64,000 nt of DNA, from the NCBI GenBank assembly GCA_965215195.1, contig CBDCDC010000002.1, forward strand, positions 224,001-288,000, written 5' to 3'. The position numbers were made by a program, and so were the translations under genes. Below are positions 8,541 to 58,789 of this stretch, in pieces. Position 1 is the first letter of the stretch, and each line of letters opens with the position of its first letter. Origin of the DNA: Candidatus Latescibacterota bacterium. Lineage in GTDB: Bacteria; Latescibacterota; UBA2968; UBA8231. The notes beneath the pieces are model-generated. The model was not told where the DNA came from. It saw only the letters and a list, made by a program, of their open reading frames with translations, and ran no database searches.

Positions 8541-8544
8541 TATC

Positions 8545-15609: not shown

Positions 15610-15626
15610 TTCTTGTAGTAGGGCTG

Positions 15627-15759: not shown

Positions 15760-15931
15760 GTAGGGCTGTTTCACGTCTGTGGACGATCCCGCTGAGAAGC
15801 CCATCGGGTGATCTACGAACACAATAGGTAGTAGCGATACGATTCTGTAAAAAGAATGGGCTCAATCGTCTGCCAAGGCGGTCGGTTCCTGTTCCTGATT
15901 CCTCAAACCTTTTGATAGAAGGAGACAAACA

Positions 15932-17344: not shown

Positions 17345-17443
17345 TGTCTTGTAGTAGGGTGTTTCATGTCGCTGGACGAAGAAGCCCATCGGGTGATCGA
17401 CGAACACAAATGGAACACCTAGCCCCATTGGTTCATATCTGTA

Positions 17444-17642
17444 ACTGATGTTCCGCATCCCCTGCCTTGGCAGGGGCAGGCTTGCTTGCTGCCGCCGGTC
17501 GGGTGTCATTGCCGCGCTTGGCCGGACAAGCGGGCTTCGACGTTGAGCTCCGCTGAAACGTGAAGTAGGCAGGACAGTAGGGCATAACGATCGTTATAGA
17601 CGCGCAAGGAGCACCAACGCCTGAATGGCGCGTAACATCAGT
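17444..17642 (+). mobile_element. MITE family B, 199 bp
   Basis: Same TIRs and site as the 10823 copy; flanks ctgta / cggta. Confidence 0.8.
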
Positions 17643-18171
17643 CGGTAAAAAGAATGGGCTCAATAGACACCCCTCTTGCGGCGGCTGAGCGAGTCGGTGG
17701 GTCGGGGGTCTGTTGGCTTGGTCCGACGCGCCGCCCGCCGCCGGTGTGATTTTCAAAGGGACCTACTACCGAATAAGGGTAGTGGGTCCCTTTGAATTTT
17801 TTGGGACGTTCTGCCTCTTTATCCGGGGACTGCAATTTCAAATATCCCTTGATTTGTTCACTCAGCGACCATAGAATACAAGGCCGTGAGATGTTGTGTT
17901 TGTCTTGCGCGTGATGCACCGAATACACCACCGATTCTCGACCTGCTAAGAATGTTATGTAAATCGTTAAAAACAGTAATTTACCCCCCTCCCCTCAAAA
18001 TTCTGCTCGTGCGCTCAATTCCCTACTGCTCAAGCACTGGCGACGGCTCCCAAGCGACCATTTGGCAAGCCGTCCCGACCCTCGCCGCCTGTTGCCCGTG
18101 CGGCATTCGTCTGTCATGGCGGCCGGTTCCTGCACCTGATTCCTCAAACCTTTTATAGAAGGAGGCAAACA
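17643..18171 (+). repeat. Long intergenic module of the LRR array, copy c (diverged, no MITE A)
   Basis: Homologous to copies a and b; intact long hairpin at 17752-17796. Confidence 0.8.
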
Positions 18172-24392: not shown

Positions 24393-24443
24393 AAATCCTG
24401 CAAATTGCAAAACGGCCATTGAAATGGCATGGGGAACGCAAAA

Positions 24444-25415
24444 ATGAAAAAAAAATGGATCGGGATGGTGCTGATGGGGTGGGTGTTCGCCGCTGGCGTC
24501 CACGCGCAGACCATCGCCGTAGATGAGCGGATCGCCCCCTACGAAAAGGTGCGCGGTCTGTCCGGCAATGCCAGCAGCATTGGCTCGGACACCATGAACA
24601 ACATGATGGCGCTGTGGCTGGAGGCTTTTCGCAAGTACTATCCCAACGTCAAGATCCAAATTGAGGGTAAGGGGTCGAGTACAGCACCGCCGGCCCTGAT
24701 CGAGGGCACGGCCCAGTTCGGGCCGATGTCGCGGCCCATGAAGTCGAGCGAGGAGGACAAATTCGACCGCACCTTCGGCTATAAGCCAACGCCCTTGCGG
24801 GCCGCGCTTGACGCGCTGGCGGTCTTTGTCAACAAGGACAACCCCATCGAGGGCCTGACCCTGCCGCAGGTCGATGCGATTTTTTCCAAGACCCGCCGCA
24901 GCGAGTTTCCCCAAGATATCGCCACTTGGGGCCCGTTGGGGTTAGAAGGGGATTGGGCCAAGGCCCGGATCAGCCTCTACGGCCGCAACTCGGCGTCGGG
25001 CACCTATGGCTTTTTCAAAAAGCAGGCCCTGTTCAAAGGCGACTATAAAGACGAAGTCAAAGAGCAGCCCGGGTCGGCGTCGGTCGTGCAGGGGATTACC
25101 GAGGACCGCTTTGCCATAGGCTACAGCGGCATTGGCTATCGGACCTCTGGCGTGCGCGTCGTGCCGTTGGCCAAGGCCGAGGGACAGGAGTTTAGGCAAG
25201 GCTCCATGGAAAACGTCCTCAACGGCTCCTATCCCCTTGGTCGCTTCCTATACATTTATATAAACAAGGCGCCCGGCCAAGCCATGGACCCGCTGGTGAG
25301 GGAATTCTGCGCGTTCATTTTTTCCAAAGAGGGTCAAGAAATTGTGGTCAAAGACGGCTATATGCCCGTGCCGTTTGAAGTGGCCCAAGCCGAATTGGCC
25401 AAATTGGATATCTAA
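24444..25415 (+). CDS. pstS: Phosphate ABC transporter substrate-binding protein
   Basis: GSDTM, EGKGSSTAPPAL, GPMSR, YGRNSASGTYGFFK, EQPGSASVV and YPLGRFLYIY. Confidence 0.95.
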   Translation: MKKKWIGMVLMGWVFAAGVHAQTIAVDERIAPYEKVRGLSGNASSIGSDTMNNMMALWLEAFRKYYPNVKIQIEGKGSSTAPPALIEGTAQFGPMSRPMKSSEEDKFDRTFGYKPTPLRAALDALAVFVNKDNPIEGLTLPQVDAIFSKTRRSEFPQDIATWGPLGLEGDWAKARISLYGRNSASGTYGFFKKQALFKGDYKDEVKEQPGSASVVQGITEDRFAIGYSGIGYRTSGVRVVPLAKAEGQEFRQGSMENVLNGSYPLGRFLYIYINKAPGQAMDPLVREFCAFIFSKEGQEIVVKDGYMPVPFEVAQAELAKLDI

Positions 25416-25427
25416 GAGCGCGAGCAC

Positions 25428-27632
25428 GTGACTCAAAAGCCATATAAGCGCGGGATCACGCGGCGGGCGCAAGCCCTTGACTGGCTGGGTGGGCGCTTCA
25501 TTTCCTTGGGCGGCATCGGCATTATTGCAGCCGTCTTGGGGATATTCGTCTTCGTCCTCGCCGAGGCTTGGCCCCTGTTTAGCGCCCCGGCGCTAAAAGC
25601 AGAAAAGGCGCACCAAGCGGCCGGCGCATTCGCCATTGGGCTCGATCCCTATTACCAGACCGCGTATGCGGTCGGCCCGCAAGGCGTGGATTTGTTGCGG
25701 TTGGACGATGGCCAAATCATCCGCCGCGAGCGGCCGGCCGAGTTGGCGGGCCGCGAGGTAACGGCCGCACAGCGTGCGCCAAACGACGTTTTGGCACTGG
25801 GCACGGACGATGGCCACCTGCTGGTGGCGCAGGTTCGCTTTCGGCTCGATTACAGCAGCGGTCAGCGGCAGGTGGTGCCGCAATTTGCGGCTGAGCGCCT
25901 CGTGGCGGTCGATCCAGCGGGCGAGCCGCTGGTGCAGGTGGCCTTTCGGGAAGGGGACGACGGCCGCTCGGCCGCGGCCGCGATTGCGGCGAGTGGCCGC
26001 TTGGTGGTGATGATAGCCGAGCAGCAGCAGGGCCTATTGGGGCCGGGCGAGCGCAAAGCCATGCACTACGAGCTAACGGCCGACTTCGACGGCAAGGCCA
26101 CGCAGGTGCTGCTCGACGGCCGCATTCGCCAAGTGCTCGTGGGCACAGACCAAGGGCAGGTATGCGAGTGGCGGCTGGGTCCAGTGGAGCAAGCGCCGGC
26201 GTTTGCCGGGTGCATGGCCGTCTCAGAGGCTGCGGTCTCGGCGCTGGCCTACGCGCTGGGCGAGATTTCGCTGGTCGTCGGCGACGCGGCCGGGCGCGTC
26301 AGCACTTGGTTTAAGGTCGAGGAAGCCGGGCAGCGCTCGTATCGCAAAATCCACGCCTTGGCCTCTCATGCGGCGGCCGTTACCCACATTGCCGCTTCCG
26401 TGCGCGACAAGCAGTTTCTCACGGCCGACGCCGACGGGGCGATAGCCCTGCACCACCTGACCTCCGAGCAGACGGCCTTGCAATGGCCGGGCCAATCCCC
26501 GGTGGCCGCGTTGGTCTTCGCGCCCAAGGTCGACGGGTTTTTGCTCCTCGGCCAAGATGGGTGGTTGCGGTGCTTTGCCCTAGACCACCCCCATCCCGAA
26601 ATCAGCGCGGCCGTGCTCTTCGGCCCCATCTGGTACGAGGGCTACCAAGGCCGCGAATACGTGTGGCAGTCCACCGGCGGCACGGACGAGTTTGAGCCGA
26701 AGCTCAGCTTGGTGCCGCTGATTTGGGGCACGGCCAAGGGCACCCTCTACGCCATGCTCTTTGCGCTGCCCTTGGCGATTTTAGCGGCCATTTACACGGC
26801 CGAATTTGCCGCGCCGCGGGTGCAGGGCTTGGTCAAGCCGTCCGTGGAGGTCATGGCCTCGTTGCCGAGCGTCATCTTGGGCTTTCTCGCCGGCTTGTGG
26901 CTGGCCCCCCTGCTCGAATCGCACTTGTTGGGGACCTTGCTGCTGCTGCCGACCGTGCCGGTCGTGGTCATGGCCGCGGCTTGGTTGTGGCAATACGCCC
27001 CGGCCGCTTGGGTGCGCGGGGTAGCGCGGGTGGGGGAGATGTACTTGCTCGGCGCGGCTACCCTGCTGGTCGCTTGCGCGGCGTACGCGCTGGGCCCGGC
27101 CTTTGAGGAACTGGCCTTTGACGGGCACTTCCTGCGCTGGCTGCGGCAAGACGCCGGCGTTGGCTACGACCAGCGCAACTGCTTGGTGGTGGGGTTTGCC
27201 ATGGGCTTTGCGGTCATTCCGCTGGTCTTTACGATATGCGAGGACGCGCTCTCCAGCGTGCCCGGGCACTTGCGCGCCGGCTCGCTGGCCTTGGGGGCCA
27301 CGCCTTGGCAGACGGCGATCAAGGTGGTGTTGCCCATGGCCCTGCCGGGCATTTTCTCGGCCGCCATGATCGGGCTCGGCCGCGCCATTGGGGAAACCAT
27401 GATCGTGCTGATGGCCACGGGCAATACCCCGATCATGGATTGGAACATCTTCAACGGTATGCGCACCATCTCGGCCAATATCGCGGTGGAGCTGCCCGAA
27501 GCGCCGCACCAAGGTACGCTCTACCGAGTGCTCTTCCTCAGCGGCCTGCTGCTGTTTGTGGCCACCTTCTGCATCAATTCGCTGGCCGAGGTCGTGCGCC
27601 AGCGCTTGCGGGACAAATACAATCGACTGTGA
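25428..27632 (+). CDS. pstC: Phosphate ABC permease with WD40-like periplasmic domain
   Basis: YVWQSTGGTDEFEPKLSLVPL, KPSVEVMASLPSV, EDALSSVP and GRAIGETMIVLMATGN. Confidence 0.93.
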   Translation: MTQKPYKRGITRRAQALDWLGGRFISLGGIGIIAAVLGIFVFVLAEAWPLFSAPALKAEKAHQAAGAFAIGLDPYYQTAYAVGPQGVDLLRLDDGQIIRRERPAELAGREVTAAQRAPNDVLALGTDDGHLLVAQVRFRLDYSSGQRQVVPQFAAERLVAVDPAGEPLVQVAFREGDDGRSAAAAIAASGRLVVMIAEQQQGLLGPGERKAMHYELTADFDGKATQVLLDGRIRQVLVGTDQGQVCEWRLGPVEQAPAFAGCMAVSEAAVSALAYALGEISLVVGDAAGRVSTWFKVEEAGQRSYRKIHALASHAAAVTHIAASVRDKQFLTADADGAIALHHLTSEQTALQWPGQSPVAALVFAPKVDGFLLLGQDGWLRCFALDHPHPEISAAVLFGPIWYEGYQGREYVWQSTGGTDEFEPKLSLVPLIWGTAKGTLYAMLFALPLAILAAIYTAEFAAPRVQGLVKPSVEVMASLPSVILGFLAGLWLAPLLESHLLGTLLLLPTVPVVVMAAAWLWQYAPAAWVRGVARVGEMYLLGAATLLVACAAYALGPAFEELAFDGHFLRWLRQDAGVGYDQRNCLVVGFAMGFAVIPLVFTICEDALSSVPGHLRAGSLALGATPWQTAIKVVLPMALPGIFSAAMIGLGRAIGETMIVLMATGNTPIMDWNIFNGMRTISANIAVELPEAPHQGTLYRVLFLSGLLLFVATFCINSLAEVVRQRLRDKYNRL

Positions 27633-29224
27633 TGGGCTTCTGGCGTCGGGGCGACCCTTTTATCTGGCTTACGGGCGGGGCATTGGCCCTGTGCTTGGCG
27701 ATGATCGCCGGCTTGGTGGGGATCATTGCCTATCACGGCACCGGCGTGTTCTGGCCGCAGGATTTGACCCTGTTGCGCCTCAAAGAGGGCCCGCCGATCA
27801 TGGGCAAACTAGTGGACCGCCAGCCCATTCCCGGGGCCGCCGGACGCTATCGAGTGCAGCTAAAGGTCGGCAACCGCGACGTGTATGGCCAAGACTTTCG
27901 CTGGGTGGATGAAGACGCGATTGCCGAGCGCGAAACGCCGCTTGAGGCCGTGGTCTTTGAGCGGGTTGAGTGGGGGGATATGCACGGCTTTATCGCGGCC
28001 TTGTACGAGGAGGAGCGGCTGCTGGCCAAAGGGGAGGGGGTCTGGGGGGCCTTGCAGGAGTTGATGGATCAGGCCGGCGAATTGGGCGAGCGCATCCGCG
28101 CCTTGGAGCGCGGAGCAATCAGCGAGTTCAACCACGAGATAGAGGACTTGCGCCGGCAAGAGCGGCGCTTGCAAGGCGAGCAAAACGACGCGCAACGCGC
28201 CGCCAACGAGGAGCGCCGCCAGGCCCTGTGGGCCGAGCACGAGGCCCTGTCCGGGCGCTTGGACGAGCTGCGGGCGCAGCAGGAGCGCTGGGCGGTGGAG
28301 GTTGTGCTGGCCGGAGGCGCAACGCGCCGCGTGGCCGTGGGGGCCATCGTCCGCGCCTATCGCCCCAATTTGATGGGCGTCGGGGCCAAGGTGCAGACCT
28401 ATCTGTCCAAGGGCTGGGAGTTCGTGGCGGGCGAGCCGCGTGAATCCAACACCGAGGGCGGCATATTCCCCGCGCTCTTTGGCACGGTGATGATGGTGGT
28501 GCTGATGAGCTTGGCGGCCGTGCCCTTTGGGATCCTCGCGGCGCTCTACCTGCGCGAGTACGCCCGGCAGGGCCTTTTGGTGCGCCTCGTGCGCATTGCG
28601 GTCAACAACTTGGCCGGCGTACCTTCCATTGTTTTTGGCATGTTTGGGCTGGGCTTCTTCGTGTACGGCATCGGCGGCAGCATTGACCAGCTCTTTTACG
28701 CGGATGCCCTGCCGACGCCCACCTATGGCACCGGCGGCATTCTCTGGGCTTCGCTGACCCTCGCCCTGCTGACGGTTCCAGTCGTCATCGTCGCCACCGA
28801 GGAGGGCTTGGCGGCCGTGCCGCGGGAGATGCGCGAAGGTGCGCTGGCTTTGGGGGCGACCAAATTTCAGATGATTTGGAGCGTGGTCCTGCCCAGCGCC
28901 CTGCCGGGCATTCTCACCGGGGTCATCTTGGCCACGGCGCGCGGGGCCGGCGAGGTTGCGCCGCTGATGATCACCGGCGTCGTCAAGCTGGCACCGGATT
29001 TACCGCTCGATGCGTTCGCGCCGTTTTTTCACCTAGAGCGCAAGTTTATGCACTTGGGCTTCCACATCTACGACGTGGGCTTCCAGTCGCCCAATGTGGA
29101 GGCGGCCCGGCCCATGGTGTACACCACGGCCCTGCTGCTGTTGGCCATTGTGTTGCTCTTGAATTTGACGGCGATTGTCGTCCGCAACAAACTGCGTAGG
29201 AAATACGCCATGTCGGCCTTTTAG
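27632..29224 (+). CDS. pstA: Phosphate ABC permease with coiled-coil periplasmic domain
   Basis: [35 protein letters not shown] and [10 protein letters not shown]; start overlaps the pstC stop. Confidence 0.93.
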
Positions 29225-29232
29225 GAGATGCA

Positions 29233-30000
29233 ATGAGCAAGCCTCCAGCCCCCATCGTCGAAGTGGAAAACCTGAACATGTTCTACGGCGCGACTCAGGC
29301 CCTGCACGACATTGACCTGCGCATTCCCGAGGGCGAGGTGACCGCGTTTATCGGGCCTTCGGGCTGCGGCAAATCAACGCTCTTGCGCTGCTTCAATCGC
29401 CTCAACGACCTGATCGAATCCGCGCACATTGAAGGCTCGGTGCGGGTCAGCGGCCGCGACATTTACGCGCCCAATTGCGATGTGATCGACTTGCGGCGGC
29501 GGGTGGGCATGGTGTTCCAAAAGTCCAATCCCTTCCCCAAGTCCATCTATGAGAACGTGGCCTATGGCCTGCGGATCGCCGGGGAAAACCGCCGCTGGGT
29601 ACTCGACGAAGCCGTGGAGAAGAGCTTGCGAGCGGCCGCGCTGTGGGACGAGGTCAAGGACCGGCTCAAGGACGGGGCTATGGGCCTGTCCGGCGGCCAG
29701 CAGCAGCGGCTGTGCATCGCGCGCACCCTCGCGGTTGAGCCGGAGGTGGTGCTGATGGACGAGCCTTGCTCGGCGCTGGACCCGATTGCCACCGCGCGGA
29801 TCGAGGAGACGATCACCGAGTTGAAGTCCGCTTACACCATCATCGTGGTCACGCACAATCTGCAACAGGCCGCGCGGATTTCCACGTATACGGCCTTTTA
29901 TTATCTAGGCGCCTTGATCGAATTCAGCCAGACCGCAGACATGTTCACCAATCCCCGCAGCAAACAGACCGAAGACTACGTAACCGGCCGCTTCGGCTGA
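29233..30000 (+). CDS. pstB: Phosphate ABC ATP-binding protein
   Basis: [40 protein letters not shown] and [10 protein letters not shown]. Confidence 0.97.
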
Positions 30001-30014
30001 GGTGGAAAGGCACC

Positions 30015-30704
30015 ATGGAGCGAAAACTTGACCACCAATTAGACGCGCTCAAACAGGACTTATTAAAGATGGGCGGGGCCGTTGAGGAGTCCATTGAGCA
30101 GGCCGTGTGCGCCCTCGTGGACCGCGACGACGCGCTGGTGCAGAAGGTGATCGCCAGCGGCAAGAAGATCGACGATTGGGAAATTGGCATTGAGGAGACT
30201 TGCCTGAAGATATTTGCCACCCAAGGGCCGATGGCCAGCGATTTGCGCCTGTTGGCCTGCACCCTGAAAATCAACGAAGATCTAGAGAGAATCAACGACC
30301 AAGCCGTCAACATTGCCCAGCGCGCCGAGGTGCTCAATAAGCTGCCGCTCCTCAAGCCGCTGATCGACATACCGCGGATGTCCGAATTGGCGCAGGGCAT
30401 GGTCAAGGACGCCCTCGATGCGTTCGTGCGCCGCGATGTGGAGCTGGCCCGCGCCGTGGGTCAGCGCGACGAAGAGCTCGACCTGTTGCGCGACCAGATT
30501 TTTCGCGAACTGCTCACCTACATGCACGCGCCGTCAATTGGGCCGGACACCATCGAGCGCGGTATCTACTTGATTTTAGTGTCGCGGCACCTCGAAAGGA
30601 TTGGCGATCACGCCTCCAACATCGCCGAGAACGTGGTATTCCTCGTGGAGGGGCGCATCGTGCGGCACCAAAAAGAAGAGTGGTGGGAGGAAAACGACTC
30701 GTGA
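30015..30704 (+). CDS. phoU: Phosphate signalling complex protein PhoU
   Basis: PMASDLR, DLERINDQAVNIA and RHLERIGDHASNIAE. Confidence 0.95.
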   Translation: MERKLDHQLDALKQDLLKMGGAVEESIEQAVCALVDRDDALVQKVIASGKKIDDWEIGIEETCLKIFATQGPMASDLRLLACTLKINEDLERINDQAVNIAQRAEVLNKLPLLKPLIDIPRMSELAQGMVKDALDAFVRRDVELARAVGQRDEELDLLRDQIFRELLTYMHAPSIGPDTIERGIYLILVSRHLERIGDHASNIAENVVFLVEGRIVRHQKEEWWEENDS

Positions 30705-31393
30705 GCGACAAAATTCTGGTTGTAGAAGACGAGCCCGACATCCTCGCCTTGGTCTCGTATCATCTAGAACAATCCGGTTTTGCGGTCGTGCCGGCCGAGG
30801 ACGAAGAGCAGGCCCTAAGCGTGCTGGAGCAGAATAGGATCGGCCTCGTGGTCTTGGATCTGATGCTGCCGGGCATCGGTGGCTTAGAAGTCTGCCGCCT
30901 CCTCAAGCAAAACCCCTGCACGAAGGACATACCCGTCTTGATGCTGACAGCGCGCGCCGCAGAGATTGACCGCATTGTCGGCTTGGAATTGGGGGCGGAC
31001 GATTACTTGGTCAAGCCCTTTTCCCCGCGCGAGCTGGTCTTGCGCATCCGCGCCATCTTGCGCCGCGTCGAGGGTTGTGGCAAAGCGGAAGCCGCGCAGA
31101 TCGTGGCTGGCCCCTTGGCCATTGATCCGGTGGGATGTCAGGTGCAGCTCGACCGCGACCCCATTGAGCTGACCGCGACCGAGTTCAAGCTCTTGACGAC
31201 CCTTGCACAGCGGCGCGGGCGGGTGCAGTCGCGGGAGGAGTTGCTCAAGGTGGTGTGGGGCTACGAGTACATTGGCTACCACCGCACGGTTGACACGCAC
31301 ATCCGTCGCCTGCGGGAAAAACTCGGGGCGGCCGCCGAGATGGTCGAAACCGTGCGCGGTATGGGCTATCGCTTTCGCCGGGAGGGGGGATAG
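30701..31393 (+). CDS. phoB: OmpR-family response regulator PhoB
   Basis: ILVVEDE, LDLMLPG, GADDYLVKPF, RTVDTHIRRLR and TVRGMGY; operon context. Confidence 0.9.
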   Translation: MSDKILVVEDEPDILALVSYHLEQSGFAVVPAEDEEQALSVLEQNRIGLVVLDLMLPGIGGLEVCRLLKQNPCTKDIPVLMLTARAAEIDRIVGLELGADDYLVKPFSPRELVLRIRAILRRVEGCGKAEAAQIVAGPLAIDPVGCQVQLDRDPIELTATEFKLLTTLAQRRGRVQSREELLKVVWGYEYIGYHRTVDTHIRRLREKLGAAAEMVETVRGMGYRFRREGG

Positions 31394-31394
31394 G

Positions 31395-32726
31395 GTGCGC
31401 CTCGGGTGGATGTTGCTTCTGAGCAACGCGCTCTTGGCTGTGCTCGCGTGGTGGAGCACTCACATCGCGCTCGCGCTCGTGCTGGCCGCGCTTTGGGCTG
31501 GGGGCCAAGTCTGGTTCTGGGGCCGGGCTGCCCGCCGGCAGGGCGAGCGCTTGCGCCAGCTCGACCAAGCAGCCCTCGACGATCCAGCTTGGGTGTTTCA
31601 TCCCGAGCTGGCGCAAGCCCTAGAGGACCTCGCGGATCGCAGGCAACAGCGCATCCATCGCCTAGAGAGCGAAAATAACCGCTTAGAGGTCATCCTCGAA
31701 AGCATTACCGAGGCCATCTTGGTCGTCGATTGCACTGGCCGGGTGGTGCTGGCCAACAAGGCGCTGGCCAACCTGTTCGGCTTAGATCCGCCGTTAGATG
31801 GGCTGTTGATCGCCGAGGTCGTGCGTTGCGCGGCCATCCAAGACGCGCTGACCGGGTGTTTGGCCGAAGGGCGGGGCCGAGCCATGGAGGTGGAGCTGAG
31901 CGGTGCCCTGCGGCTGAGCTCAGGTCGAAGCCCGGAGCGCCATTTGGACGTGCAGGTCGCGCCGGTCTTCGAAGGGAACGAGTGCATCGGCGCGGTGGTG
32001 GTCCTCTACGACATTACGCGCTTGCGCCAACTAGAGCGGATGCGTCGCGATTTTGTGGCCAACGTATCGCACGAATTGCGTACGCCGTTGACAGCCATTA
32101 AGGGCTATGCCGAAATTTTGTCTGACGGTGCGCTCGACGACCGGGCGACGGCGCGCCGCTTCACCGGCATCATCGAGAATCACGCCGATCGCCTGACCCA
32201 TTTGCTCGGCGACTTGCTCGACCTGTCGCGGCTGGAGTCCGATCAATTGGAGGCCGACATGGTCCCTTGCGCACTAAAGCCCTTGATCGATACGTCCATT
32301 GGCTCAGTCAGCCAAGCGGCCGCGCAAAAGCAAATCGCCATCCACTGCCACGTTCCGCCGTCTGTCAAGGTAATCTGCGACCCCAAATTGATCGAACAAG
32401 CCTTCATCAATCTGCTCGACAACGCCGTCAAGTACACGCCCGCGGGCGGGAAAGTCCGCGTTGGTACGCGGCCCGTAGAGGGCGCCGAGCGCTTGGCGAT
32501 TTACGTTGAAGACACCGGCATTGGCATTCCCTCCGAGGACTTGGGCCGGATTTTCGAGCGCTTCTACCGAGTTGACAAGGGGCGCTCGCGCGCCCTCGGT
32601 GGCACTGGACTCGGGTTGGCCATCGTGCGCCACATTGCCGAGGTCCACGGCGAGCAGGTGAGGGTGCAGAGCAAGTTAGGGGCGGGGACGACCTTCAGCT
32701 TTGAATTGCCGAGCCGCTTTGGCTAA
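31395..32726 (+). CDS. phoR: PAS-containing sensor histidine kinase PhoR
   Basis: RRDFVANVSHELRTPLT, NLLDNAVKY, FERFYRVDKGRSR and GGTGLGLAIV. Confidence 0.92.
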   Translation: MRLGWMLLLSNALLAVLAWWSTHIALALVLAALWAGGQVWFWGRAARRQGERLRQLDQAALDDPAWVFHPELAQALEDLADRRQQRIHRLESENNRLEVILESITEAILVVDCTGRVVLANKALANLFGLDPPLDGLLIAEVVRCAAIQDALTGCLAEGRGRAMEVELSGALRLSSGRSPERHLDVQVAPVFEGNECIGAVVVLYDITRLRQLERMRRDFVANVSHELRTPLTAIKGYAEILSDGALDDRATARRFTGIIENHADRLTHLLGDLLDLSRLESDQLEADMVPCALKPLIDTSIGSVSQAAAQKQIAIHCHVPPSVKVICDPKLIEQAFINLLDNAVKYTPAGGKVRVGTRPVEGAERLAIYVEDTGIGIPSEDLGRIFERFYRVDKGRSRALGGTGLGLAIVRHIAEVHGEQVRVQSKLGAGTTFSFELPSRFG

Positions 32727-33087
32727 GGCCGCGCTATGGTGCTGGGCGTTGGCGGCCTTAGTGGCTGGCTGCGCCGGCGAGGGCGACGAGGGCGCGGTGG
32801 CACAGGGCAAGGCCCTGTTTACCCGCAATGGGTGCGCGGTGTGCCACGGCCCGGATGGGCGCGGCGATGGCCAAGTAGCGGCGACGCTCAAGCCGCCCCC
32901 CCGCGATTTCCGCGATCCCGCAGCCTTCAAAAACGGCCACAGCAAGGCCGCCATCGCCCGCACGATTGAGAAGGGAATGCCCGGTACTTCCATGCCGGGC
33001 TATCGACATCTCTCGGCCGAAGAACGCGAGCAGATTGCCGCTTATATCCGCTCTTTGCTAAAGAAAGAACATGAAGACACGCCTTAG
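32701..33087 (+). CDS. c-type cytochrome lipoprotein (monoheme)
   Basis: Lipobox LVAGC; CAVCH; PPPRDF; GMPGTSMP. Confidence 0.85.
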   Translation: MNCRAALAKAALWCWALAALVAGCAGEGDEGAVAQGKALFTRNGCAVCHGPDGRGDGQVAATLKPPPRDFRDPAAFKNGHSKAAIARTIEKGMPGTSMPGYRHLSAEEREQIAAYIRSLLKKEHEDTP

Positions 33088-34165
33088 TTCGATACTCACA
33101 TTCGCGCTCGTCCTGTTGTTTTTTGCCGCTCCCAGCACCGTCCGTGCCCACAAGCTCAATACCAGTTACGCGAATTTGATCGCCGAGGACGCCGCGCTCA
33201 ACGTGCGCGTGCGCATGGACGATTTCGACCTTTTGAAAATTGGCATCGATCAAGACGGGGACGGCCAGTTGTTCTACGAAGAGATGGTGGCCGGCCTCGA
33301 CGACATATTCGCCTTTGTCGAAGGGCAGATGCGCCTGAAGGCCAATGGCCAGCCGCTCACCCTCGTGCGCGGTAGCGGGGACATAACCCCGGACAACAAG
33401 GGGAACATGTTTGCCAACCTGTACTTCAGCGCCGAGTTGGAGGATCCGGTTGGCGAGTTAGAGGTGTGGATCGGCTGGCCAGAGCACTTTGGGGACGCGC
33501 ACAAAAATTTGGCCAAAATCGCGTTGCCCGGGCAGCCGCTCGTCCAAGCCGTGTTTTCGGCGGAGTCGCCTCAGCAGACCTTTGCCGGGCAGAAATCGCT
33601 GTGGGAACACATATACGAGTTCACGGTCCTCGGGGTGGAGCACATTTTTCTCGGCTACGACCACGTCATGTTTTTGCTGGCGCTGATCGTGGTGGGCGGT
33701 CGGCTGCTCAGCTTGGTCAAGATCGTCACGGCCTTCACCATTGCCCACAGCATCACTCTCTGCTTGGCGGCCCTCGAAGTCGTCCGTCTGCCGAGCCAGT
33801 GGATTGAGGCGGGCATTGCCTTGAGCATCGTGTACGTGGCGGTGGAGAATTTCTGGCTCAAGCGCACGGATTACCGCTGGGTGATCACCTTTGCCTTTGG
33901 GCTGGTCCACGGGTTTGGCTTTGCCAATGTGCTGCGCGAGTTGGGGCTGCCCACGCGCGGGTTGGTCGCCTCGCTGTTTGCGTTCAACGCCGGCGTGGAA
34001 ATCGGCCAAGTAGCTATTGTCGCGCTCGTCTTTCCCTTGATCGCGTGGCTCGGCCGGCGGCCCTATCAGCGCACGGTCGTCTGGGTGGTGTCGGCCGTCA
34101 TTGGGCTTTTTGGGCTGGGCTGGTTTGTCGAGCGGGTCTTTGAGCTGGAATACATGCCGCTGTGA
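33071..34165 (+). CDS. HupE/UreJ family membrane protein with N-terminal periplasmic domain
   Basis: LGVEHIFLGYDH, TAFTIAHSITL, FGLVHGFGFA and FNAGVEIGQ. Confidence 0.92.
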   Translation: MKTRLSSILTFALVLLFFAAPSTVRAHKLNTSYANLIAEDAALNVRVRMDDFDLLKIGIDQDGDGQLFYEEMVAGLDDIFAFVEGQMRLKANGQPLTLVRGSGDITPDNKGNMFANLYFSAELEDPVGELEVWIGWPEHFGDAHKNLAKIALPGQPLVQAVFSAESPQQTFAGQKSLWEHIYEFTVLGVEHIFLGYDHVMFLLALIVVGGRLLSLVKIVTAFTIAHSITLCLAALEVVRLPSQWIEAGIALSIVYVAVENFWLKRTDYRWVITFAFGLVHGFGFANVLRELGLPTRGLVASLFAFNAGVEIGQVAIVALVFPLIAWLGRRPYQRTVVWVVSAVIGLFGLGWFVERVFELEYMPL

Positions 34166-35380: not shown

Positions 35381-35572
35381 TTATCTGCCGATTTGCGGTA
35401 TAGAGAGTGCTTTGCAAATCTTCTTGGCGAGATGATTGGGGATCTCTACGTGACGAGGCACTGCTTCAACGGCACCAGTAGCAGGGTTGCACCATAGTGA
35501 GTGCGCCGACCCCTCTCGTTTGAGATAGCAGCCGTGCCGTCTGAGATGCCGCAGGACATCTCCTCTCTTCAC
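35381..35572 (-). CDS. hicA: HicA family toxin
   Basis: 63 aa basic protein: MKR...GC.LKREGSAHSLW.NP...VPRH.EI. Confidence 0.9.
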   Translation of the reverse strand: MKRGDVLRHLRRHGCYLKREGSAHSLWCNPATGAVEAVPRHVEIPNHLAKKICKALSIPQIGR

Positions 35573-35784
35573 CGGACAACCACAATATCTTGTTCGGCGT
35601 CATCGGGAAGACCGCGCAACGCATCTTCTAGACGATCGCGAAGGATGAGTTCGATCGCGCTCGCCAGACTTTCTCGAGCCTCCTGCTTGGTGCGACCTTG
35701 GCCGTTGGCCCCCGGTACTTCTGGACAATATGCGATGTGCCATTCGCCATCTCGTTCAAAAATTGCCGTGTAGGTATTGCTCAC
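35569..35784 (-). CDS. hicB: HicB family antitoxin (short, no DNA-binding domain)
   Basis: YTAIFE, AYCPEVPGANGQGRT.QEA.ESLASAI; 4-bp overlap with hicA. Confidence 0.9.
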   Translation of the reverse strand: MSNTYTAIFERDGEWHIAYCPEVPGANGQGRTKQEARESLASAIELILRDRLEDALRGLPDDAEQDIVVVR

Positions 35785-35988: not shown

Positions 35989-38652
35989 ATGAAGATGACT
36001 GAACGGCAGATCGCTCGCCCGCGCGCCGTGCGCCTCGCTGGTGCAGCCCTGCTGCTCGGTGGCTTGGCCTTCAATCCGCTGGCCCTCGCTCATTTTTCCC
36101 CGGGGCATCCGCTTGGCACTGAGGGTATCATCGCCCTGCAGATCGCCTTGATCTTTGGCGGCGGTTGGCTCGTTTGGCGATGCCCCCGGCTGCCGCTGGT
36201 TCCCATTGTGCTCGTCGCCCTCGCCTTTGGCGCACTTGCCGCCCTCGGGGGGTACGGTACGGCCCGCTCCCTGCAAAAGGTGCGGGAACGCAACCGGCTT
36301 TTGGCGACTATCGACCGCAGCGAAGCGGTGCAGCAGCACCTGAGCGGTGAAGCCCTGCCGCTCCTCGCCTTGGGGATGTACCAAGGCCAACTGCCCGCTG
36401 CGCCGGCGCGTGCGCTTTTTGATTCTATGGTCGCTGTCGCGGATGTGGCACAGGCCGCAGAGGCGACCGAAATCGTCCCGGCGTTGGGCATTAAGCGCCA
36501 GCGCTGGAGCATTGCACCGGCCGCGCAATTCCACCGCTCCGATATCCAGCTGTGGGGCCCGCTCTGGGCCGCGGTGCATTCTTGCGACTATGCGGCCTTC
36601 CACCTTGAGACTGGGCATTTCCTCGACGCGGAGGAGGCGATCTACCAAGCCCGCTTGCGCTTCAACGCCTTGGCGCAGACAAAAGACGGGGAGCGCACGC
36701 AAATTCGGGCTTGGCTGGCGCTCGAATGGCAGCGGCAGGAAGATGGCAGTTGGCGAATCCAGCGCTGGGAGACCGAATCGCTGGAGATGCTCACGCGGGC
36801 GCACGCGCTCTTTGCCGAAGTCCTCGACGAGGCGCTTCCGCGAGACGAGGACCGCGCCCGGGCCAGATTTTCGCGCCACACCGAACTGGTGCGCCAGTCG
36901 TTTTTCGACTCCGCGTTTGTCGCGCCGCACCGCTATTTTACCCGCCAGGCCTTTGACCGCCATCCCGGCATCAGCGTCGTGGATATCGACGCCGATGGGT
37001 ACGACGATCTGTACATTGCCGTGCGCCGAGGTCGGAACATGCTGTTGCGCAATGGCGGCGATGGCGCGTTCACCGAGTGTGCAGCCCGCTATGGCCTCGA
37101 TGTGGAGCACCACACTGCGGCGGCGCTCTTCGCCGACTTTGACAACGATGGCGACCCAGATGTCTTCCTCGGCCGTACGCTCGCGCCCAGTCTCTACTTG
37201 GTCAACGAGGACGGGCACTTTGCCCCCCGCGACTTAGGCGATGGCGTCTTGCCGTTCCTCGTGGCCTCGATCTCGGCGGCCGACTACGACCGCGATGGCC
37301 TGCTTGACGCGTACTTTTCCACGTATGCCGCGCGGATGTTGCTTGATGCGGTCACTACCGCGTCTGGCGCAGGTGCGCTGTTGGCCGACTTCCTGCCTGC
37401 GGACCGCGCCCGTGCGCTCTACGACCTGAGCCGCGCCCGCATCGGCCACCTCATCCACGACGCGCCCGGGCCGCCCAACGTGCTGCTGCGCAACCTCGGC
37501 AACGGCCGCTTCGCATCCACTGCGGCCGTGTGGCGCAACACCTTACAGGCGACTTGGGCCGACTACGACCGCGACGGCGACCCGGATCTCTACCTCGCCA
37601 ACGACTTTGCCGCCAATAGCTTGCTCCGCAATGACGGCCGTGCTCTCGTCGATGTCACCGCGGAGAGCGGGGCCGCAGACCCGGGCTTTGGCATGGGTGC
37701 GAGCTGGGCCGATTACGACGGGGATGGCCGCCAAGACCTGTACGTGACCAACATGCACAGCAGTGCTGGTCGCCGGATCACGGCAGCCGCCGGGCGGGCG
37801 GGCGCGGCGTTTGCCCCGTTGGCCCGGGGCAACTCCCTTTTGCGGAACGGCCGCGCGGGCTTCACCCTCGTTGCGGATTCGCCGGTGGAGGACGGCGGCT
37901 GGGGCTGGGGCGGCCAGTTTTTGGACTTTGACAACGATGGCGATCTCGACATCTACGCTCTGAGTGGGTATTACACCCCGCCGTCCGCAGTCGCTCTCCC
38001 CGAGGATACCTGAAGCCTGTTTTGGCGCACGGTCGTGCGCCATGGCCGGACCGATGGAGCGTACAACGTGGGTGCGCGGCTCGACGCTGGAGCCTCGCTC
38101 AGCGGCTACCAGCGCAACCGCCTCTTTCTCAATGTAGAAGGCCGCGACTTCATCGACGTGTCGGGCCTGTCGGCCGTGGATTCGCCGGCCGATGGCCGCG
38201 CCTTTGCCACCTTGGACTTCGACCGCGATGGTCGCCTCGACTTGGCTGTCGTCAATGCCAACGAGCCGCTCTGCGAGCTGTTTGCCAACCGCAGCCAAGC
38301 GGGCCACATCCTCGCGTTGCGCTTTGTGGGGGGCAATGACCGCGACGAGGTCTCGCACGAATGGAGTACACGCGATGGCTATGGAGTGCAAGTGGAAGTG
38401 GATGTCGGCGGGAGGACGCTGCTGCGCGAGCAGCGGGCTGGCGAGGGCTTCTCGGCCCAGAACAGCGCGACCCTGATCGTCGGCTTGGGGGCGCACCCAT
38501 GCGCGGATGCCGTGCGTGTGCGCTGGCCTTCGGGACGCACCCAGCGCGCAACCGACGTGGCGGCCGGTTCGCTGTTGACCGCGTACGAAAATCCTCGACA
38601 CTCGCCGACGGGTGGGGCGTTTGTGGTGGTGCCGTACCGCGATACGCCGTGA
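35989..38652 (+). CDS. Membrane-anchored FG-GAP repeat plus ASPIC/UnbV protein with in-frame TGA at 38011-38013 (candidate selenocysteine); otherwise two ORFs, 35989-38013 and 38035-38652
   Basis: Both ORFs are in the same frame, separated by one TGA (PEDT*SLFWRTVV); DxDxDGxxD repeats on both sides; ASPIC motifs AGEGFSAQN and VRWPSG; hairpin after the TGA. Confidence 0.75.
38014..38047 (+). other. Bacterial SECIS-like hairpin
   Basis: Stem tggcgcac (38023-38030) / gtgcgcca (38035-38042), loop ggtc starting with G after a 17-nt gap from the UGA; lower pairing gcc/ggc. Confidence 0.65.
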
Positions 38653-38680: not shown

Positions 38681-38989
38681 ATGTTCAAGGAATTAGACGC
38701 TATCGTGCTTACAACCGAAATTCCGTTCGCTCATATCTGGGATGTCCCACCCGGCAGCTTGCTGCTTGAAAACAGCAAACTAGGGAAAGGGCTGAAAGCC
38801 GGCGATGTCGGCACGATTGTGTATATACAGGGTAACGGAGAGGCATTCGAGGTGGAGTTTCTGGAATCCGATGGAAGCACGGTCGCTATTGCCACGGTCT
38901 TGCCATCACAGGCTCGCCTAGCCACTGAAGAGGACCGCGCCAACTTTCGCTTCGGGAAGAAGGCACCCGCACATATCTCTGCCTCATAG
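38681..38989 (+). CDS. DUF4926 domain protein
   Basis: GLKAGDVGTIV...AFEVEF...G.TVAIAT; aggagg RBS. Confidence 0.85.
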   Translation: MFKELDAIVLTTEIPFAHIWDVPPGSLLLENSKLGKGLKAGDVGTIVYIQGNGEAFEVEFLESDGSTVAIATVLPSQARLATEEDRANFRFGKKAPAHISAS

Positions 38990-39432
38990 ACAACAAGAAG
39001 CACCGCACGGCCGACCTGCTCAATGGGATTTTGGCAGGGCATGACGGCAAATCATTGGACATCGCCACCGCCTATTTCAACGTCCGCGGCTTCGCGCTGT
39101 TCCAAGAAGGCTTGCAAGGACTTGGTAGTTTTCGCCTGCTGCTCGGCGACGAACCCAAGGATGGCGAGTCAGTGGGGCTGCGTCCCCAAGCTGCGCTTCG
39201 GTTGATCCATGAACTGAACGACGCTCCCTTTGACGAAGCTACCCTCCGAGCCGTTGAAGACCTCATCGCCTTTTTGCGCCGCGACTTAGTAGAGGTGCGT
39301 GCCTATCAGCACGGATTCCTTCACGCCAAGACCTACCTCTTCTACGGCGACCTGCCCGTAGGCGGCGCCGATCGCTTTCAGCCTCTCGCGGCGATCGTCG
39401 GCTCCAGCAACTTTGGCGCAACCCGAGAGTAA
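38986..39432 (+). pseudogene. Truncated N-terminal PLD-like nuclease domain of an SNF2-type helicase
   Basis: IDNKKH...LDIATAYFN...FRLLLG...FLHAKTYLFY...AIVGSSNF then stop; no clear start and no helicase domain. Confidence 0.75.
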
Positions 39433-39499: not shown

Positions 39500-39739
39500 A
39501 TGAAGATGTTCAAAGAACATGAACGTATCGTACTTATAACCGATATTTTGGAGGAGGGGTTGGTAGCTGGCGATGTCGGCACGATTGTGCATATCCATCC
39601 AAGGGGAGAAGCCTTTGTGGTGGAGTTCATGACGCTTGACGGCAATACGATTGCCATTGCAACGGTGCTACCGTCGCAGGCCCGCCTAGTAACCGACCAA
39701 GATATTACCCACGCTCGCACGATGACGATGACAGATTGA
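39500..39739 (+). CDS. DUF4926 domain protein
   Basis: KEHERIVL..D...GLVAGDVGTIVH...AFVVEF.TLDG.TIAIAT. Confidence 0.88.
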   Translation: MKMFKEHERIVLITDILEEGLVAGDVGTIVHIHPRGEAFVVEFMTLDGNTIAIATVLPSQARLVTDQDITHARTMTMTD

Positions 39740-49702: not shown

Positions 49703-52333
49703 TTACTCTTGCCCAGTGCTGGCGAAGACGCGAATGAACCCCAGCGAGGTGTTGCGATCCTCGGCCGCGAAGTTTTGCTCCTCTAGCTGAAGGCCCGCAT
49801 TTAAGGTTAGTTGGTAGCCCAAATAGGCCGACGTATTGGAGAACAAAATCGAATAGACGCGGCTGGTAAAGTCCTCGGCAAAACCGACTTGTAGCTCGGC
49901 CGGCTGGTCGCGCAAGTTCTCAAACCAACTGAACTCTAGGCCGAGCGCGATCCAAGTCTGTTCGAGGATCGCGTAGCGCGAAATCAAGAACAGGGTTTCC
50001 TCTAGCTCGCGGATATTGGCCTGCGACCGATCGGTGGGAACCTCGCGCCTGAAGGTGCTCTTCCACTTGGGCCAGATGGTCAGGTCCGCGCCGATGGGAA
50101 TGGTGTAGTCGGCTTTGGTGATCAGCCCGAAAAACGAGCGGTCGCGCTTGTCGGCGGCCTGCTCGCCCCGCTGGTTGAAAAGCTCGTGTTTGACCTTGGC
50201 GGTCGCCCTGAAGTTGCGGATGCGGTTGTAGTTGGCCTGCAAATAAACGCTGTTGACGAAAGTGTCTTGGTTGTCGAGCGGATCGGTAAAATCCGTCCGG
50301 CCCGTTGGGTCGATCCACCGCAGGCGGTCTTCTGGGATGTTGTCCGCCACGAATTTGGCGTGCTCAAAGAGCGCGATCCGCAGGCCCGGGTAGTTCCAGC
50401 GCACGGTGAACAAACCGTAGTTGGCCTTGCTCTTGCGCGCCGAGCTTAGCTGGCGCTCGCTCAAGCGGCCGAGGGTTAGCTGGGCGTCCTCGCTGAGCAT
50501 CAGGCCGCCGTAGGCGTTGTAGCCGCGGTGGTCGCGGTCGTAGGGATAGTCGGGCTGGCGGTCGTCTTCAAAGCGGTCGATCAGGGTGTTGTTGTTCATG
50601 TCCATGCCGAAGAGAAAGGCCGGAGGATCGACCTCGTAGCGCAGAAAAGGCTCGTCGTAGTCGGGCCGCGAGTTGCGGTTTTGGTTGAAGTCGGAGACGA
50701 AGTCGTTGTTTTCGTCTAGCCCGGGGAACACTTCTAAGTCGGCACCCACCGACCCGCCCGAAGCGCCCACGCCGGTGCCGAATTGGCCGGCCCGCTGCCA
50801 GTCGGCAAAGCGGTCTTGGTCGTCGTTGTCATCGACGAACTCGAAGAGGTGGAAAATCTCGCTGCTATAGTCGATGCCGCCCAGCGAGTTGGCCATGAAC
50901 GCGGTCGTGCTGTAATCGGGGTCCATTGTGAACATCTCGCCGTAGGCAAACCACGGATAGGTGGTATAAGACGCGGTTATATAACCGGCCTCTCCCTTGT
51001 CTTCGGCGAGGGTGTGGTGCTCTAAGTTTTGGTTGGGGAAGCGCCGGAAGCGCCGGTTGCGCACGAACTCGGCGCGCAGGTCTAGCCCGCCGAGGCTCAG
51101 AATCTCGAAATCCACCCCGATTACATCGCTGCCGGTGGGCAGCCCGTACTCAAAGCGCAAAAACTGCTGGTTCGACCCGTCGGATATTTCGCCTTCGGCT
51201 TGCGCCACGGGCAAGAAGACCGGGTCGCCCAAGCGGTCGGTCTGCACGTTGGACGTGACGTCCACTCGGTAGTCGTTGGCCAGAATCAGCTCGAACTCGA
51301 TTTTGTGCGCCTCCTGATAGGTCGGCACCTTTTCGGTGGGCCGGAAGCTGTTGCGGATGTCGTAGATCAGTTCGATGTTGTCCACGCCCTTGGCCTCTAA
51401 GCTGCCGCCGGTGCGGATCCCGCCGCGCACGATCGGGGTGATTTCCGGGTGAATCTCGCCATCGATCAGCACTCGGTCGAAAAACAGCAGCGCACCCTCG
51501 TCGCTCGACTCGGGCGAATCGTCCGAGATGAGGATCGTCACGGTCTCGACGCTGCCCGTGTTCTGCGGCGTGGTCAAGACGCCCTTGAGCGAATTGTCGC
51601 CCATGTCGAGGGTGCTCCGCGCGTTGTGGGCGCTGACCCACGTCGCCCCCACCTTGGCGAAGTCGCCCACTTGGGCCACGCCCCGGCCGCCGAGCAGGCG
51701 GGTGGAATTTTCCACGAGGGCTGCGGCCTCGGACTGGGTGCCGGCCGGGTTGGCCGGCGAGCTGATGCGCGAGCCGAGGAACGTGAATGCGTACTTGTCG
51801 GAGAGGAAATCCCACTGGATGCCGTTGAAGGTCGGCTTGGAGAAGGTCAGTGGGGTCAGGGTGGTGCGGATGGCGTCGCCTACGGTCAGCGCGGTGTGAA
51901 ACTGGCCCTTGTGCGCAGACGAGATCACCACGCGGTCGAACCAACTGCTGTAGCGCGGGCTTTTGAAGATGCCGCTGCCTTGGCGCAGGGGATTGTTCTC
52001 GGTCCAGTCGTAAATCGTCCAGCCGCGGGCAATGTAGTTGCCGAAGGCATCGTAGTGGCGGTTCCCCTCTAGCTGTATATCGACGTAGCGCTCGTACTCG
52101 TCGCGGGCGTAGTTGCTGTACTCCCAGCCCCGCCAGCCGTATTCGTAGAAGAGGTTTTGCGGCAGGTAGAACTTGCGGCGATTGGGCGCTAGGGCACCGG
52201 GGTGGATTCGCACCCCGTAGATTCCTGGCTCGGCTATGGGCCGATAGCCGGTAGTCAACTGGGCTGAAGTGCTGTCCCAGCCTAGCGCCAGCAACGCGAG
52301 TGCTGCACACAATGCCGATCGAGACAAATACAT
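49703..52333 (-). CDS. Large exported protein with acidic Ca-binding-like loops and probable beta-barrel
   Basis: Signal peptide; DDNDDQD, DENNDFVSD and DMNNN loops; alternating beta-strands toward the C-terminus. Confidence 0.7.
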   Translation of the reverse strand: MYLSRSALCAALALLALGWDSTSAQLTTGYRPIAEPGIYGVRIHPGALAPNRRKFYLPQNLFYEYGWRGWEYSNYARDEYERYVDIQLEGNRHYDAFGNYIARGWTIYDWTENNPLRQGSGIFKSPRYSSWFDRVVISSAHKGQFHTALTVGDAIRTTLTPLTFSKPTFNGIQWDFLSDKYAFTFLGSRISSPANPAGTQSEAAALVENSTRLLGGRGVAQVGDFAKVGATWVSAHNARSTLDMGDNSLKGVLTTPQNTGSVETVTILISDDSPESSDEGALLFFDRVLIDGEIHPEITPIVRGGIRTGGSLEAKGVDNIELIYDIRNSFRPTEKVPTYQEAHKIEFELILANDYRVDVTSNVQTDRLGDPVFLPVAQAEGEISDGSNQQFLRFEYGLPTGSDVIGVDFEILSLGGLDLRAEFVRNRRFRRFPNQNLEHHTLAEDKGEAGYITASYTTYPWFAYGEMFTMDPDYSTTAFMANSLGGIDYSSEIFHLFEFVDDNDDQDRFADWQRAGQFGTGVGASGGSVGADLEVFPGLDENNDFVSDFNQNRNSRPDYDEPFLRYEVDPPAFLFGMDMNNNTLIDRFEDDRQPDYPYDRDHRGYNAYGGLMLSEDAQLTLGRLSERQLSSARKSKANYGLFTVRWNYPGLRIALFEHAKFVADNIPEDRLRWIDPTGRTDFTDPLDNQDTFVNSVYLQANYNRIRNFRATAKVKHELFNQRGEQAADKRDRSFFGLITKADYTIPIGADLTIWPKWKSTFRREVPTDRSQANIRELEETLFLISRYAILEQTWIALGLEFSWFENLRDQPAELQVGFAEDFTSRVYSILFSNTSAYLGYQLTLNAGLQLEEQNFAAEDRNTSLGFIRVFASTGQE

Positions 52334-52388
52334 GGGAATACCCCTCCCTCAAGAGGCTTGGCCGAATGGGCTAGGAACTAGCGGTTCG

Positions 52389-58724: not shown

Positions 58725-58789
58725 CTCCTAAAAACAGAAACATCGCACGGCGAATATAACGCAAAACAGCAGGTGCCTGTCAAATTAAT

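Follow-up and report, generated by a model that had tools for sequence, protein, structure and literature searches.

The DNA analysed here (hereafter the window) is a stretch of 64,000 nucleotides (nt) from a Candidatus Latescibacterota bacterium (contig CBDCDC010000002.1, positions 224,001 to 288,000). At 35989-38652, on the forward strand, it holds a gene for a protein of the FG-GAP/ASPIC-UnbV (CRTAC1-like) family whose reading frame is interrupted by a TGA. Translation gives 888 positions with a single internal stop, the TGA at 38011-38013 (codon 675), plus the final TGA, and the peptide around the internal stop reads ...ALPEDT*SLFWRTVV... (the asterisk marks the stop). A preliminary description, made from the letters of this DNA, had proposed a selenoprotein at this locus. 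That proposal is supported by the presence of the TGA across phyla, by a frame that is open on both sides, and by a hairpin that passes the rules for bacterial selenocysteine insertion sequences (SECIS). With a probability of about 0.82, the internal TGA is a selenocysteine (Sec) codon decoded in a SelB-dependent manner, which would give a periplasm-facing propeller protein of 887 amino acids (aa) with a probable redox role. The features of the gene are the following, with positions relative to Sec written as U-2, U+2 and so on.

35989-38652 (+): whole gene, with 887 sense codons, Sec proposed at codon 675, and a final TGA; predicted membrane-anchored FG-GAP/ASPIC (CRTAC1-like) protein
36034-36252 (+): putative N-terminal anchor, residues 16-34, 47-65 and 68-88, three hydrophobic segments in a Kyte-Doolittle scan
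36271-36963 (+): conserved N-terminal domain, residues 95-325, present throughout the subfamily; tblastn matches align from about residue 100
36967-38010 (+): FG-GAP repeats 5' of the TGA, from residue 327; Pfam FG-GAP_3 and FG-GAP, profile match to 9etn_A with E = 3.2e-31
38005-38007 (+): Asp673 (U-2), invariant in 42 of 42 aligned homologs, Sec and non-Sec alike
38011-38013 (+): in-frame TGA, proposed selenocysteine codon 675, from the translation and from TGA at orthologous sites
38014-38022 (+): spacer codons Ser-Leu-Phe; in relatives the Ser comes from two codon families
38016-38049 (+): extended stem-loop with lower helices around the upper hairpin, in the minimum-energy fold; the centroid equals that structure
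38023-38042 (+): SECIS-like upper hairpin with an 8-bp stem and the loop GGUC at 38031-38034; encodes W-R-T-V-V-R-H
38272-38274 (+): Cys762 (in NEPLCELF), clade-specific, candidate partner thiol for Sec675
38377-38580 (+): UnbV_ASPIC domain, residues 797-864, Pfam E = 3.7e-15; included in the protein only upon read-through of the TGA

With read-through of the TGA, the product of 887 aa exceeds the Pfam cut-offs for both repeats and for the C-terminal domain (FG-GAP_3 with 123.6 bits over six stretches, FG-GAP with 75.2 bits, UnbV_ASPIC with 56 bits). This places it in the FG-GAP/ASPIC-UnbV family and confirms that one in-frame TGA lies within a continuous FG-GAP plus ASPIC frame. After the ASPIC domain, 23 residues remain and the protein ends. 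The three-segment N-terminus would act as a membrane anchor, with the remainder of the protein outside the cytoplasm and facing the periplasm; the N-termini of relatives resemble signal peptides or lipoboxes. Residues 95-325 matched no Pfam family and no PDB relative. The G+C content at third codon positions (GC3) is 0.78 in each half of the gene, and, one antisense artefact aside, no other TGA in the window is flanked on both sides by coding-like GC3. The first in-frame start 3' of the TGA is a GTG at 38035, located within the 3' arm of the hairpin. The 25 nt preceding it hold no GGAGG-like run, in agreement with the earlier remark that the downstream open reading frame (ORF) has no evident ribosome-binding site, and no promoter-like site was found between the two gene halves.

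The proposed Sec675 is located within an insertion specific to the subfamily, with the motif D-x-U-S-x-(F/L/Y/W)-W-R-x-V-V. The preliminary description had also cited a paralog in the window as an uninterrupted counterpart. This paralog is indeed a single chain, encoded by one ORF at 61647-63410 on the reverse strand (587 aa, 30% identical), but it is uninformative about the TGA column because the TGA-carrying insertion is missing from it. A C-x(10)-C loop (EPCIRSGGIAVYCGP) is present in another of its blades, and its gene adjoins those of a PhyH-like dioxygenase (60764-61579) and a DUF6785 protein.

The conservation of the stop was first apparent at the protein level. Residues 560-887 were used as a query, and of the 120 relatives listed, 73 end exactly at the TGA column, with 59-100% identity over the part covered. 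Their C-terminal residues are DT in 65 cases, DS in six, DA in one and DL in one, and no annotation treats any of these close relatives as a single read-through chain. When 1.84 billion cluster representatives (50% identity) were searched exhaustively with HMMER, 41,362 hits were obtained. Of the best 150, the column is the end point of 107 and is crossed by 27 (only about 10 of them being true local orthologs), and 16 are unclassifiable. In 158 clusters, the downstream half is called as a small protein of its own; several of these clusters share contigs with the upstream half, and they include versions of 340-358 aa with AhpC/TSA or Redoxin domains. Over 97-100% of the query region, the downstream half is 45-50% identical to full-length homologs.

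At the DNA level, the comparison covered at least 79 loci from a contig search, in which the best among the matches listed reached 51% identity and no close relative was among them. A tblastn search of 79 loci with residues 631-730 gave 82 high-scoring segment pairs (HSPs) spanning the column. A stop occupies the column in 24 of them, from 21 loci, and all 24 stops are TGA; together with Cys at the column in the proteins P0119 and P0147, this is the conservation that the preliminary description had sought in homologs. The record titles of the loci refer to Planctomycetota, Verrucomicrobiota, Myxococcota, Acidobacteriota, 'Deltaproteobacteria', 'Gemmatimonadetes' and others. In the same frame, 573-935 codons are open upstream and 207-628 downstream of the TGA, one locus (L008) being cut by the contig end. 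The terminal stops of the 24 genes are TGA in 12, TAG in seven and TAA in five, so that the internal stop, TGA in 25 of 25 sites when the window is included, differs from the terminal one, TGA in 12 of 24 (Fisher p = 2.9e-5).

The codons that flank the stop are informative as well. The codon after the TGA specifies Ser in 22 of the 25 sites (AGT in 10, AGC in nine, TCG in two and TCA in one, with something else in the other three), the Asp at U-2 is encoded by GAC in 13 sites and by GAT in 12, and Trp679 is invariant in 42 homologs. The use of both AGY and TCN codons for Ser, the mixture of GAC and GAT, and the invariant Trp679 therefore indicate that the flanking codons are under selection at the protein level. 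It follows from this selection that translation passes the TGA, instead of restarting at the GTG eight codons on.

Downstream of the TGA, the preliminary description had recognized an 8-bp stem with a 4-nt loop beginning with G, 17 nt from the stop codon. This hairpin is present at 38023-38042 as TGGCGCAC-GGTC-GTGCGCCA, with 17 nt between the TGA and the loop. The 45-nt fold has an energy of -20.3 kcal/mol (z = -2.07), and 8 of 200 shuffled sequences were equally stable. The published rules for bacterial SECIS elements (bSECIS; PMC13188914, Fig. 2 legend) call for 3-9 nt in the apical loop, 4-16 bp in the upper stem, a G in the first two loop positions, a distance of 16-37 nt from the UGA, and a minimum free energy (MFE) of -7.5 kcal/mol or lower. 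All of them are passed by the window hairpin (GGUC, 8 bp, 17 nt, -20.3 to -25.9 kcal/mol), and the fit to the bacterial consensus suggested earlier thus holds. Perfect-stem hairpins that pass the SECIS rules follow 100 of the window's 1549 TGA trinucleotides, and equally stable ones follow 11, while a GGTC loop on a stem of at least 6 bp at 16-19 nt occurs at this TGA alone. Rfam gave no match at gathering thresholds in the window, and around the site only matches at chance level. The closest known counterpart is the SECIS of Escherichia coli fdhF, where an in-frame TGA is likewise followed by a stem-loop within the coding sequence with the same GGUC loop (18 nt after the TGA, compared to 17 in the window). 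The fdhF product belongs to an unrelated protein family and the fdhF stem has another sequence, and the window element is a predicted binding site of SelB.

The hairpin is also associated with the TGA in the wider family. In the unconstrained 60-nt MFE fold, the rules are passed by 15 of 24 Sec sites, compared to 13 of the 58 orthologous sites that lack Sec (p = 8e-4), and with perfect stems by 16 of 24 compared to 10 of 58. The best perfect hairpin has a mean of -8.7 kcal/mol at Sec sites and -5.5 kcal/mol at the others (p = 2.8e-5). When each site was compared with 300 synonymous recodings, Fisher's combined p was 6e-8 for the Sec sites and 0.076 for the rest. A GGTC loop appears in 12 of the 24 Sec sites. 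In several sequences (L011, L021, L022, L037 and L049b) the stem is maintained by paired substitutions, and a few of these change both of the encoded amino acids; four stem pairs are changed on both sides, a number reached by none of 500 shuffles. A covariance model (R1) run over 1.5 Mb recovered its training sites and the partial site of L008, then non-Sec orthologous sites at 25 bits or less, and nothing else, a result that is circular for the training rows.

Hairpins of 6-10 bp, orthologous to 38023-38042, were also observed in the non-Sec loci L027, L029, L057 and L069 (with Asn at the column) and L005-L007 (with Glu), for example TTTGGCGGC-AGGTG-GTCGCCAAA. They may be relics of lost SECIS elements or by-products of the W-R-x-V-V peptide.

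Among the HSPs without Sec, the column is occupied by Asn in 35 (mostly from Acidobacteriota), Glu in six, Ser in five, Ala in four and other residues in a few, several of the remaining HSPs being spurious repeat matches; Thr also occurs in non-Sec homologs. Cys is found in two proteins, P0119 ('YDTCSVLWRHVV', with YDTCSVLW) and P0147 ('DYDLCNEYWRSVV', with DYDLCNEYW). These non-Sec relatives are single chains with the same local motif. A FastTree phylogeny was built from 86 orthologous segments of 541 residues and rooted at the midpoint, after dropping rows with less than 330 residues on the upstream side or 190 on the downstream side and 3 of 70 that lacked the Asp at -2 and the Trp at +3 to +6. 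In this tree, Sec forms stand on both sides of the root, and clades with Glu, Ser, Cys and Ala/Ser/Asn are nested among them. This topology suggests that Sec is ancestral and has been lost several times, a conclusion that hinges on the midpoint rooting. In this large, multi-phylum family, Sec predominates at the column and is probably also ancestral. At the columns of A524, Q643 and T794 of the window protein, Cys is present in 9, 6 and 8 of 19 non-Sec forms, respectively, compared to 0, 0 and 1 of 23 Sec forms. In the Glu forms, the thiol chemistry may have moved elsewhere.

The relatives also provide a redox context. The Sec forms can be divided into 15 long forms, in which over 300 residues follow the TGA, and nine short ones. 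Fourteen of the long forms carry a fused TlpA/ResA-like domain, in 13 cases with a WCxxC motif and in L037 with SCDMC and an AhpC-TSA match, L065 being the only long form devoid of it. The fused domain matches the solved structures of ResA, StoA, TlpA, CcmG and the thioredoxin-like domain of PilB (E from 2e-12 to 5e-4). A Cys at U+2 occurs in eight of the nine short forms, compared to none of the 14 fused forms (Fisher p = 6e-5), a pattern with few independent events behind it, since the short forms come mainly from one planctomycete clade plus L072. These fused thioredoxin-like domains and U-x-C motifs point to a Sec that would be redox-active or nucleophilic, cycling with a thiol, and they lend independent support to the earlier guess of a redox role for the protein. 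In the window protein, a candidate for such a thiol is Cys762, at a position where 28 of 37 close C-terminal fragments have Cys and the wider family has Phe or Leu. No thioredoxin-like partner gene was found among the ORFs of the window.

More than one of these genes may occur on a single contig. The planctomycete contig L016 holds, at 4308-12142 (+), three tandem Sec-containing paralogs, each with a TGA and U-S-C, and on the verrucomicrobial contig L049 a long fused form (8668-11604, +) and a short U-S-C form (around 12223, -) are located side by side. Two other loci, L001 (9788-12787) and L002 (9701-12598), are 88.7% identical in DNA, yet they are labelled as Gemmatimonadetes and Gammaproteobacteria metagenome-assembled genomes; one of the two taxonomic labels is probably wrong.

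According to the mechanism proposed here, a ribosome that reaches the TGA at 38011-38013 would find the hairpin at 38023-42, which would recruit SelB with Sec-tRNA(Sec), as in E. coli fdhF. The product would be a protein of 887 aa with a three-helix membrane anchor, the N-terminal domain, the FG-GAP beta-propeller and the ASPIC domain, facing the periplasm. The partner thiol of Sec would be provided in the long forms by the WCxxC of the fused TlpA/ResA-like domain, and in short forms of the planctomycete type by the Cys at U+2, while in the clade of the window protein this part may fall to the clade-specific Cys762 or to some separate reductant. On a broader and more tentative view, which has somewhat less than even odds, the whole subfamily would consist of extracytoplasmic selenoenzymes with Sec in a D-x-U-S-x-x-W-R active site, recycled by the U+2 Cys or by a membrane-fed TlpA-like domain, with Sec as the ancestral and commonest state. 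If so, the ancestry of Sec would explain why a family that spans Planctomycetota, Verrucomicrobiota, Myxococcota, Acidobacteriota and the Latescibacterota/Gemmatimonadota group has been missed by searches for Sec/Cys pairs, and the functionally enigmatic CRTAC1-like superfamily would have a catalytic redox root.

Several known systems resemble parts of this design. CRTAC1 (cartilage acidic protein 1, 9etn_A) shares the FG-GAP repeats and the C-terminal UnbV_ASPIC domain, and relatives of the window protein are named 'CRTAC1 family protein' at NCBI; in contrast to CRTAC1, the window protein is predicted to be membrane-anchored and carries an additional N-terminal domain, and the Sec insertion does not align to CRTAC1. 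TlpA, ResA, StoA and the thioredoxin-like domain of Neisseria PilB (MsrA/B) are similar to the fused domain of the long Sec forms, including the WCxxC, although here the putative catalytic partner is a Sec-bearing propeller loop and the window protein is devoid of the fused domain. In PilB, the fused thioredoxin-like domain recycles the catalytic domain, and it is proposed by analogy that the long Sec forms follow the same recycling logic. Among catalogued selenoproteins (PMC13188914 Table 1), the thioredoxin-like selenoprotein Sec.2 and the SO_0444 family transporter share with the new family a U-x-C motif (here in eight of nine short forms) or an envelope setting, and the TonB-dependent receptor of the FCYXU type is also an envelope protein without a thioredoxin fold. 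None of them has any sequence relationship to the window family.

A number of observations weigh against the interpretation of the TGA as a Sec codon. The machinery for Sec was not found near these genes: neither selA, selB, selD nor a tRNA-Sec is present in the 64-kb window or in the 79 fetched loci and flanks, where aragorn detected 23 tRNAs, none of them tRNA-Sec, and searches with E. coli SelA, SelB and SelD gave two weak, unrelated matches only. The flanks of the 21 Sec loci yielded no second selenoprotein gene; of 116 raw candidates, 21 had at least 100 open codons per side, and in all 13 of these 21 that were scanned with Pfam the domains were confined to one side of the TGA. The window protein itself is a short form, with the sequence U-S-L; it lacks both the fused domain and a Cys at U+2, and it falls outside the subgroup with a C-terminal thioredoxin-like domain and WCxxC. 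In its close clade, moreover, the stop is identified as TGA from the window DNA alone, the other close relatives being seen as proteins. Variable residues in homologs had been named at the outset as a sign against Sec, and the column does vary: non-Sec homologs have mostly Asn, Glu, Ser or Ala, also Thr, and rarely Cys (two proteins), which is atypical for a catalytic Sec. This variation is outweighed by the conserved TGA and marks the family as an unusual one.

The evidence from the RNA has its own weak points. In a fixed register, only 71% of the cells of the stem alignment pair, and RNAalifold, run on this alignment, proposed a 4-bp alternative of -1.1 kcal/mol without covariation in place of the stem. 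The plain 45-nt MFE separates the Sec sites poorly from the others (-14.2 compared to -12.3 kcal/mol, p = 0.067), and the p-values of single sites against synonymous recodings are modest (median 0.08) and come from sequences that are related, not independent. A hairpin stands at the same place in verrucomicrobial Glu forms (L005-L007) and in acidobacterial Asn forms (L027, L029 and L057) without Sec, and part of the stem may simply follow from the W-R-x-V-V-R peptide.

These points leave some room for a programmed read-through without selenium, in which the hairpin would help to insert a standard residue or slow down termination, giving full-length and truncated proteins. A conserved TGA followed by a hairpin would fit such a mechanism equally well, the tolerance of the column for N, E, S, A, T and C would be natural under it, and it would not require the Sec machinery that was missing from the window and the flanks examined. 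It is nevertheless considered unlikely: the hairpin has the geometry and the GGUC loop of the fdhF SECIS and passes the bSECIS rules, the mutual exclusion of the U+2 Cys and the fused WCxxC suggests a chalcogen partner, and the stop at the column is only ever TGA, never TAG or TAA. A stably split gene, with a propeller fragment of 674 aa and an ASPIC part made by re-initiation at the GTG and assembling with it, would account for the two proteins annotated in all sources examined and for the GTG that almost all sequences have eight codons after the stop. Its odds are slightly lower, because the internal stop is TGA in 25 of 25 sites while terminal stops vary, and the stretch from the TGA to the GTG is conserved as protein with synonymous variation (Ser from two codon families, invariant Trp). 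Furthermore, this GTG is buried in the stem with neither a Shine-Dalgarno-like run nor a promoter-like site, and the non-Sec relatives are single chains with the same local motif.

The remaining alternatives are negligible by comparison. A pseudogene, a recent nonsense mutation or a sequencing error, for which nothing speaks beyond the stop codon itself, is ruled out by the comparative data: 73 of 120 listed relatives share this stop, as do 107 of the best 150 representatives and 21 distant loci, and the downstream half is intact, with a GC3 of 0.78 and 45-50% identity to full-length homologs. The preliminary description had named such an error or mutation as a possible refutation, which the many relatives sharing the stop exclude. 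An altered genetic code, with TGA read as Trp or Gly, is ruled out too, given that 12 of the 24 genes themselves terminate with TGA, that the ORFs of the window close normally under table 11, and that the carriers come from many phyla.

The family is absent from the selenoprotein lists that were checked. Table 1 of a 2026 review of 119 prokaryotic selenoprotein families (PMC13188914) has no FG-GAP, VCBS, ASPIC or CRTAC1 entry. The words FG-GAP, VCBS, ASPIC, CRTAC and propeller do not occur in that review, in the deep-Sep paper (PMC12013277), in the GOS paper (PMC2398784) or in a 2022 review (PMC9312934), nor in the main text of BSepDB (PMC13326102), family table S2 aside. A full-text literature search retrieved no paper linking CRTAC1-like, FG-GAP or ASPIC proteins to selenium, and nothing usable on whether Latescibacterota, Planctomycetota or Verrucomicrobiota possess the Sec trait. 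The window protein (P0001) matched no NCBIfam model. Nearly all selenoproteins have abundant Cys homologs, and searches exploit such Sec/Cys pairs (PMC13188914); the rarity of Cys forms here would explain why the family has been missed so far. It would thus represent a blind spot of the pair strategy, with Cys forms rare and Sec forms in the majority among the nearest representatives. It also involves a systematic annotation error, in which the two halves are filed separately as 'VCBS repeat', 'ASPIC/UnbV', 'CRTAC1 family' or 'thioredoxin' proteins. If the Sec interpretation is correct, this is a new, large, multi-phylum selenoprotein family in lineages that the selenoprotein literature examined does not discuss, which would shift estimates of bacterial selenium use, and redox chemistry at one loop would be the first functional lead for bacterial ASPIC/CRTAC1-like propellers.

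The neighbours of the gene are a HupE/UreJ-like gene, a 2-hydroxyacid dehydrogenase gene, a HicA/HicB-like pair and two DUF4926 genes. Directly 5' of the proposed selenoprotein gene, on the opposite strand (35384-35784), a HicA-toxin-like ORF of 63 aa overlaps a UPF0150/HicB-like ORF of 71 aa. Just downstream, the two small DUF4926 genes (38681-38989 and 39500-39739, both +) share a near-identical C-terminal stretch (...IAIATVLPSQARL...), and between them lies a PLD-like fragment (39031-39432), apparently a truncated gene. Further upstream, a membrane protein of the HupE/UreJ_2 type, resembling nickel/cobalt transporters, is encoded at 33071-34165 (+), after a small cytochrome-c-like ORF (32701-33087).

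Other regions of the window contain additional clusters. The window also encodes a GlgC, whose named relatives belong to Candidatus Latescibacteria/Latescibacterota metagenome-assembled genomes at 70-80% identity and to Gemmatimonadota at 68%. A phosphate cluster at 24429-32726 (+) includes pstS, a fused PstC/PstA-like permease of 734 aa, phoU and a PhoR/PnpS-like kinase; within it, no gene was confidently called at 27633-29765. Seven tandem leucine-rich-repeat genes (470-692 aa) at 5078-19908 (+) match internalin-like and Xop LRR models with scores well short of the cut-offs, and they are an expanded paralog array of eukaryote-like repeat proteins. On the reverse strand, at 49703-54683 and 56664-60739, large proteins are encoded, one of 876 aa without any family and two of 764 and 686 aa with only F5/8-type-C domains and FlgD-Ig/T9SS tails, together with a DUF6785/DUF6784 membrane protein of 649 aa. 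These tails, along with a Por_Secre_tail protein encoded at 3268-4914, point to a lifestyle with type IX secretion.

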